Positions 30,712 to 34,391 of a DNA stretch of 56,004 nucleotides are shown here, in pieces (the stretch's first letter is position 1; every line of letters starts with the position of its first letter). The notes below the pieces were generated by a model. It searched no databases and had not been told where the DNA came from. It worked only from the letters and a program-made list of their open reading frames with translations. This stretch comes from a virus (Duplodnaviria > Heunggongvirae > Uroviricota > Caudoviricetes): the IMG/VR virus record IMGVR_UViG_2744054632_000003; one strand, 5' to 3'. A program made the translations under genes and the position numbers.

Positions 30712-34391
<3,680 letters not shown>

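Follow-up and report, generated by a model that had tools for sequence, protein, structure and literature searches.

The split portal gene of a lambdoid prophage with a satellite in its capsid gene is probably a homopolymer-length consensus error

The window, i.e. the whole 56,004-nt stretch of viral DNA that was analyzed (IMG/VR record IMGVR_UViG_2744054632_000003), contains a homologue of lambda portal gene B that is split in two by the loss of a single T from a short T run. The missing T is very probably best explained as a homopolymer-length error in the consensus of the assembly behind the window, a reading that we base on comparison with near-identical genomes, and the bacterium itself probably does not have this mutation. 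The true prophage would have TTTT at this site and an intact 533-aa portal of the lambda family, identical to WP_001518401.1, and the helper prophage and the satellite embedded in it would then not be disabled at the portal gene. As biology, the portal split is most likely not a real feature.

Results

The portal gene is interrupted by a single-base deletion

On the minus strand, the sequence around the break reads ...GGTGCAAATGTGTTTACAGCGTGATGGAGCAG..., i.e. codons GGT GCA AAT GTG TTT ACA GCG TGA TGG AGC. The first-pass annotation of the window had reported here a portal gene split by a one-base deletion in a T run, and the sequence bears this out: the run at 31540..31542 (minus strand) is TTT, read as AAA on the plus strand, whereas it is TTTT in lambda and in all close relatives. 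As assessed by alignment, the window has GTGTTTACAG where both lambda (J02459) and E. coli 2016C-3878 have GTGTTTTACAG, and the missing T is the sole difference within about 20 nt. The lambda sequence and the peptide (GANVFYSVMEQMKMLD) given in that annotation agree with the J02459 alignment and with lambda gpB. The whole portal locus (30692..32292, minus strand) measures 1601 nt, versus 1602 nt in relatives. Its frame, as given, stops at codon 254 of 534, and a single uninterrupted frame of ~533 codons is not found.

The locus is occupied by two ORFs, with the termini and coordinates originally assigned to them. The N-terminal ORF (31531..32292, minus strand) encodes 253 aa, of which residues 1-251 are native and are followed by TA and a stop codon, giving the terminus TRGANVFTA; the new stop, TGA, lies at 31533-31531. 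The C-terminal ORF (30692..31534, minus strand), 280 aa as listed, has a GTG start at 31534-31532 and begins MMEQMKMLD. When one T is put back, the locus encodes a 533-aa protein that is WP_001518401.1, as annotated in 24AR0376, EC-10, and 2016C-3878. Setting the missing T aside, the portal gene shows 0 substitutions over 1.6 kb relative to its intact counterparts in 24AR0376 and 2016C-3878. The new stop also overlaps, on the minus strand, the native Met255 codon ATG (31531-31529), forming TGATG at 31533-31529. This stop/start overlap is an accidental arrangement of the termination/re-initiation type.

Family searches place both ORFs in the same protein. The N-terminal ORF covers positions 2-213 of PF05136 (354 positions; E 4e-54) and the C-terminal ORF positions 216-354 (E 2e-34). 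In TIGR01539 (457 positions), they span 2-217 and 220-457, respectively, and both exceed the 172.7-bit cut-off of this family. The intact portal of a sister genome matches both PF05136 and TIGR01539 over their full length. The two ORFs are one portal gene broken in the middle of a conserved domain, with no other lesion. As judged from the ORFs of the window and the annotation of collinear relatives, this gene lies in the head-gene synteny of lambda, i.e. terminase A, W, portal B, and protease C.

Five one-base indels in mononucleotide runs are private to the window

Over its entire length (1..56004), the window aligns with E. coli 24AR0376 (NZ_CP195347.1) as one end-to-end block with 99.986% identity. 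The two sequences differ by three substitutions, all of which are transitions, and by five one-base gaps, all of which fall in mononucleotide runs. A9 at 273..281 (plus strand; A8 in relatives) shifts the frame of a class I SAM-dependent methyltransferase gene, which then stops at codon 11 of 223. A single T at 2419 (minus strand; TT in relatives) frameshifts a gene with a tail-fibre domain (1460..2496), with a stop at codon 34 of 346, and GG at 13522..13523 (minus strand; GGG in relatives) does the same to the tape-measure gene (11661..14221), with a stop at codon 238 of 854. CC at 26091..26092 (CCC in relatives) is intergenic and lies within the embedded satellite. The fifth indel is the portal TTT described above. 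Four of the five thus disrupt genes that relatives keep intact.

These indels are private to the window. Four independent genomes, 24AR0376, EC-10, 2016C-3878, and 07-4299, all oppose the window at every indel site that they share with it, and the best genome-wide matches to segments 1-15000 and 18200-28950 still differ from it by the indels. No genome identical to the window was found among complete RefSeq E. coli. Only one of the substitutions, at 32741 (synonymous, in the terminase A gene), separates the window from both 24AR0376 and EC-10; at the other two sites, window and EC-10 are the same. What has been shown to be private thus comes to five indels, judged against four relatives, versus one substitution, judged against two. 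The affected runs are 2-4 nt long for four of the five indels, though the window has 300 runs of at least 5 nt (204, 72, 21, 2, and 1 runs of 5, 6, 7, 8, and 9 nt, respectively).

Natural divergence within this prophage is almost free of indels. The comparison with 2016C-3878 gives 100 substitutions over 31 kb, with no gap beyond the window's own. Relative to EC-10, there are 170 substitutions and 3 gap columns, the latter all in a mosaic patch of tail genes. The private indels also differ from lesions annotated in relatives, which are common to the window. At the ylcJ frameshift and at the tail-fibre-assembly and DinI remnants, the window is identical to 24AR0376 and therefore carries these lesions too, whereas the five indels are not shared. 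Unlike the private indels, the ylcJ frameshift (17270-17420 of the 24AR0376 locus; about 45.8 kb in the window) is a real lesion that was inherited. This gene is annotated as frameshifted in 24AR0376, EC-10, and 2016C-3878, and is intact in 07-4299.

The pattern of private changes points to a consensus error

Each of the five indels is a one-base length change inside a mononucleotide run (T4->T3 in the portal gene), each is private to this assembly when compared with near-identical genomes, and together (four coding and one intergenic) they outnumber the substitutions. Taken as errors, five in 56 kb correspond to about one per 11 kb, or roughly Q40. Such a level is typical of long-read-only or flow-chemistry assemblies. 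A Dam/Dcm methylation-motif context common to the five indels was sought as a platform fingerprint, and none was consistent.

Known mutational spectra provide a reference for this excess. In mismatch-repair-deficient E. coli, 6.02 substitutions versus 0.85 indels per CDS were reported, i.e. about 12% indels, and the indel rate climbs exponentially with run length (PMC8510543). Taking these mismatch-repair-deficient mutation-accumulation lines, not wild-type cells, as the reference, the binomial probability of at least five indels in six changes is 1.6e-4 at p = 0.124 and 5.5e-5 at p = 0.1. On the assembly side, two reports (Polypolish, PMC8812927; Kastor, PMC12007338) describe homopolymer length as the commonest residual error in long-read-only bacterial assemblies, and as a source of false pseudogenes. 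The excess of private homopolymer indels, the absence of the three-T allele from complete genomes and phages, and its occurrence elsewhere only in sequences with several other small indels (see below) are the signature of a consensus error, not of prophage decay. A technical origin, in sequencing or in assembly, is what this pattern suggests.

It follows that the first-pass interpretation stands in part. Its anatomy of the locus is correct, and its caveat that the deletion might be a sequencing artefact is the better reading in view of five private homopolymer indels versus one private substitution. Its biological proposal, that a defective portal would make the prophage non-viable as a helper, is probably wrong, since the deletion is one of five private homopolymer indels and the allele is absent from complete genomes and phages.

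Some observations nevertheless speak against an artefact. A run of four T is short by the standard of classic homopolymer errors. All five indels lie within the first 31.6 kb, which comprises the late genes and the satellite, with 0 in the last 24.5 kb, a distribution that has a chance of about 0.055. Finally, the same deletion on four haplotypes, as described below, could mark a mutational hot spot.

The three-T allele is found in indel-laden sequences and not in complete genomes

Other sequences were queried with 81 nt centred on the portal site. None of the 3,178 complete E. coli genomes that contain the site, at 4,505 places in total, and none of the 80 phage records had the three-T allele, and the best identity to the query in these two sets was 98.8% (81/82). 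The exact three-T 38-mer had 0 matches in GTDB species representatives and 0 in JGI metagenome contigs. In IMG/VR, two contigs have three T, versus at least 120 with four T. The allele is also found in Logan contig SRR14141815_20710, the only sequence found to encode an exact copy of the 253-aa fragment; no exact copy of the 280-aa C-terminal fragment is on record. Over 1.6 kb, any two of the four portal haplotypes (that of the window and those of the three other carriers) are 28-43 substitutions apart, and the three-T allele therefore arose independently on four haplotypes.

Indels were then surveyed in a 44-sequence alignment of the 4.25-kb Nu1-A-W-B block, scored against the majority state. 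Thirty-eight of the 44 sequences have no indel, two have one, and the window has one; the three other three-T carriers have 5, 4, and 6, the highest loads among the 44. Their extra indels are 1-2 nt long, are distributed over Nu1, A, W, and B, and lie mostly in homopolymer runs. Examples are four A6->A5 changes in the Logan contig, T6->T8 together with A4->A3 in one of the IMG/VR contigs, and A6->A5 together with G4->G3 in the other. The Logan contig and one IMG/VR contig have in common an A6->A5 change in gene W, on different haplotypes. The indels of these three unrelated carriers look like recurrent, context-specific errors. Every three-T sequence seen is visibly error-laden or degraded, and never a finished, quality-filtered genome.

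Gene conversion from a three-T donor was also considered and rejected. The carriers differ within about 150 nt on either side of the site, and the window has none of their substitutions. A conversion patch shorter than about 290 nt is compatible with the data, and the other four private indels make conversion unnecessary.

Alternative explanations for the missing T

After a consensus error, the explanation that survives best, although it is unlikely, is a genuine and very recent strain-specific slippage mutation that truncates the portal at residue 251. Residues 252-533 (PF05136 positions 216-354) would be lost, no proheads would be made, and helper and satellite would remain unpackaged. The deletion is indeed present in the sequence as given, and selection does not act on the late genes of a prophage in a lysogen: for the host they are neutral, null alleles are not purged, and real frameshifts can persist. 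The dependency of the satellite on the helper portal is real as well, because the satellite is without a portal gene; no portal-sized ORF is listed in it, and none of the 13 CDS that identical copies have in their annotation is a portal gene. However, a genuine mutation needs four gene-breaking frameshifts and one intergenic indel to have occurred alongside one private substitution, an indel excess with a P of about 1e-4 to 3e-4. It also has to be reconciled with a portal gene that is otherwise free of substitutions relative to intact copies, and with an allele that is missing from all 4,505 homologous sites in complete genomes.

A bolder version is improbable. Here, the deletion would be real and the T4 run, at codons 250-252 of lambdoid portals, would be a site of repeated natural inactivation, struck independently on four haplotypes or more. 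In the window, it would lock the helper prophage and its capsid-gene satellite in place, with the portal halves possibly still made via TGATG.

It is very improbable that all five indels are real, whether they accumulated in a mismatch-repair-deficient (mutator) lineage or in a prophage decaying after a first inactivating event. Homopolymer indels are more frequent in mutators, the three substitutions relative to 24AR0376 are all transitions, and the one long run affected (A8->A9) is a plausible site for slippage in vivo. Yet indels represent only about 12-14% of point mutations in mismatch-repair-deficient cells and occur mainly in runs of at least 5 nt (PMC8510543), whereas five of the six private changes in the window are indels, four of them in runs of 2-4 nt. 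Neutral decay, for its part, should give several-fold more substitutions than indels.

Programmed frameshifting and transcriptional slippage were examined as candidates and rejected: AAT GTG TTT ACA GCG TGA contains no slippery heptamer of the form X XXY YYZ, homologues all keep a single frame through the site, and a run of just three T is far too short to make RNA polymerase slip. A functional break of any kind, in which a programmed frameshift would yield a full-length portal or a split portal would form from separately made halves, the second of them translated after re-initiation at the overlapping Met255 ATG, is hardly credible: the TGATG overlap and the recurrence of the allele on four haplotypes are what can be said for it, whereas restoring the frame needs a -1 slip at G-TTT-A, the uninterrupted four-T form is universal in the phages and complete genomes examined, the interruption sits in the middle of the conserved portal domain, and the other three-T carriers have more frame-breaking indels in the portal gene or its neighbours.

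The window is a complete prophage with a satellite in gene E

The window corresponds to a complete lambdoid prophage, from its tail-fibre/cargo end to the last base of the integrase gene intD, which adjoins tRNA-Arg, i.e. a DLP12-type site. The gene order is Nu1-A-W-B-C-D-E-FI-FII-Z-U-V-G-T-H-M-L-K-I-J. The capsid gene E contains a helper-embedded satellite (HE-PICI) of 10,366 bp (18394..28759, minus strand), and it is because of this embedded satellite that the first-pass annotation spoke of a helper. On either side of the satellite lies the 10-bp core TGCTTCGGCT (18384-18393 and 28750-28759), which covers E codons K79-H82. The satellite genes specify an integrase, HTH regulators, an Icd-like protein, a primase, an SSB, and Abi-like cargo, and the satellite has a capsid gene (E family) and a decoration gene (D family) of its own. 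When it is excised in silico, the result is a 341-aa E, the printed sequence of which matches the uninterrupted E of 2016C-3878.

Two accessory slots of the satellite (18521-19486 and 26418-27101) vary between otherwise near-identical copies in other E. coli. They hold Abi-like and hypothetical genes in the window, and TIR-domain, DUF262, DUF2971, restriction endonuclease, or IS66 genes elsewhere, which suggests that these slots are a hot spot for defence cargo. The prophage of EC-10 is almost identical to the window save for the mosaic tail-gene patch (J, I, K, L, M, and H; about 9,300-14,040), which contains nearly all of its 170 substitutions. This indicates that tail modules are probably replaced by recombination between lambdoid prophages. 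Two further features were noted. A 133-aa ORF (54584-54985, plus strand) with an excisionase-like HTH N terminus overlaps the start of intD (54841-56004), and at this site PGAP annotates only a 66-nt "incomplete HTH" remnant in relatives. An internal direct repeat of about 246 nt, with about 83% identity, is found at 4191-4625 in the tail-fibre gene region.

Discussion

At face value, the portal, the tape measure, and the tail-fibre gene of the helper prophage in the window are all dead, and one would read the element as a domesticated or stranded helper-satellite pair. The lesions private to the window are almost certainly consensus errors, as far as comparative sequence data can tell, so the element should be treated as a probably intact lambdoid helper with an HE-PICI in gene E. 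A real deletion would amount to an ordinary loss-of-function allele in a gene that is well known. The main value of this case is as a caution: inferences about prophage decay or satellite-helper conflict that are based on pseudogenes need read-level support, which is required where the private indels of an assembly exceed its private substitutions.

The helper-satellite arrangement is an already described class, and this context is not the finding. HE-PICI at the site E:Phage_cap_E:80 have a published example, Eco567.11capE in prophage 50icd, and 201 instances (Tommasini, Mageeney and Williams 2023, PMC10111431). Like these, the satellite of the window, which is ~10.4 kb long, is inserted at codons 79-82, near profile codon 80 of a lambda-E cognate, is bounded by a short attL/attR identity block (10 bp), and has its own E-family capsid. 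Its integrase, HTH regulator, and primase are co-oriented with the late gene E, as in the published class, for which an integrase, an AlpA-type regulator, and a primase in this orientation are characteristic. The assignment follows the definition in PMC10111431 and was made by site, gene content, and orientation. Unlike the helper of Eco567.11capE, which is at icd, the helper in the window is at the tRNA-Arg/intD site.

A lambdoid late-gene product that requires a change of frame also brings to mind lambda G/G-T, which is made by -1 ribosomal frameshifting. However, G/G-T has a slippery heptamer that is conserved across lambdoid phages, whereas the portal site has none. Unlike G/G-T, the frameshifted form of the portal is absent from all reference phages and complete genomes searched.

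The indels of the window are closer to long-read or flow-chemistry errors, as described in PMC8812927 and PMC12007338: they are one-base changes in run length that are private to an assembly, outnumber substitutions, and fragment genes. They differ from the errors described there in that four of the five runs are short (2-4 nt), and their assignment to this class comes from the pattern only.

Finally, the closest known counterpart of the portal itself is lambda gpB (J02459 gene B, 2836-4437), for which cryo-EM entries include 8k38, 8k39, 8xot, and others. Both belong to the same family and lie in the same synteny, Nu1-A-W-B-C-D-E, and the repaired 533-aa portal differs from lambda gpB (PDB 8k38) at 5 residues. 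What sets the window portal apart from lambda gpB is that its frame is lost after codon 251, via the one T dropped from lambda's GTGTTTTACAG. The portal is an ordinary member of the lambda gpB family.
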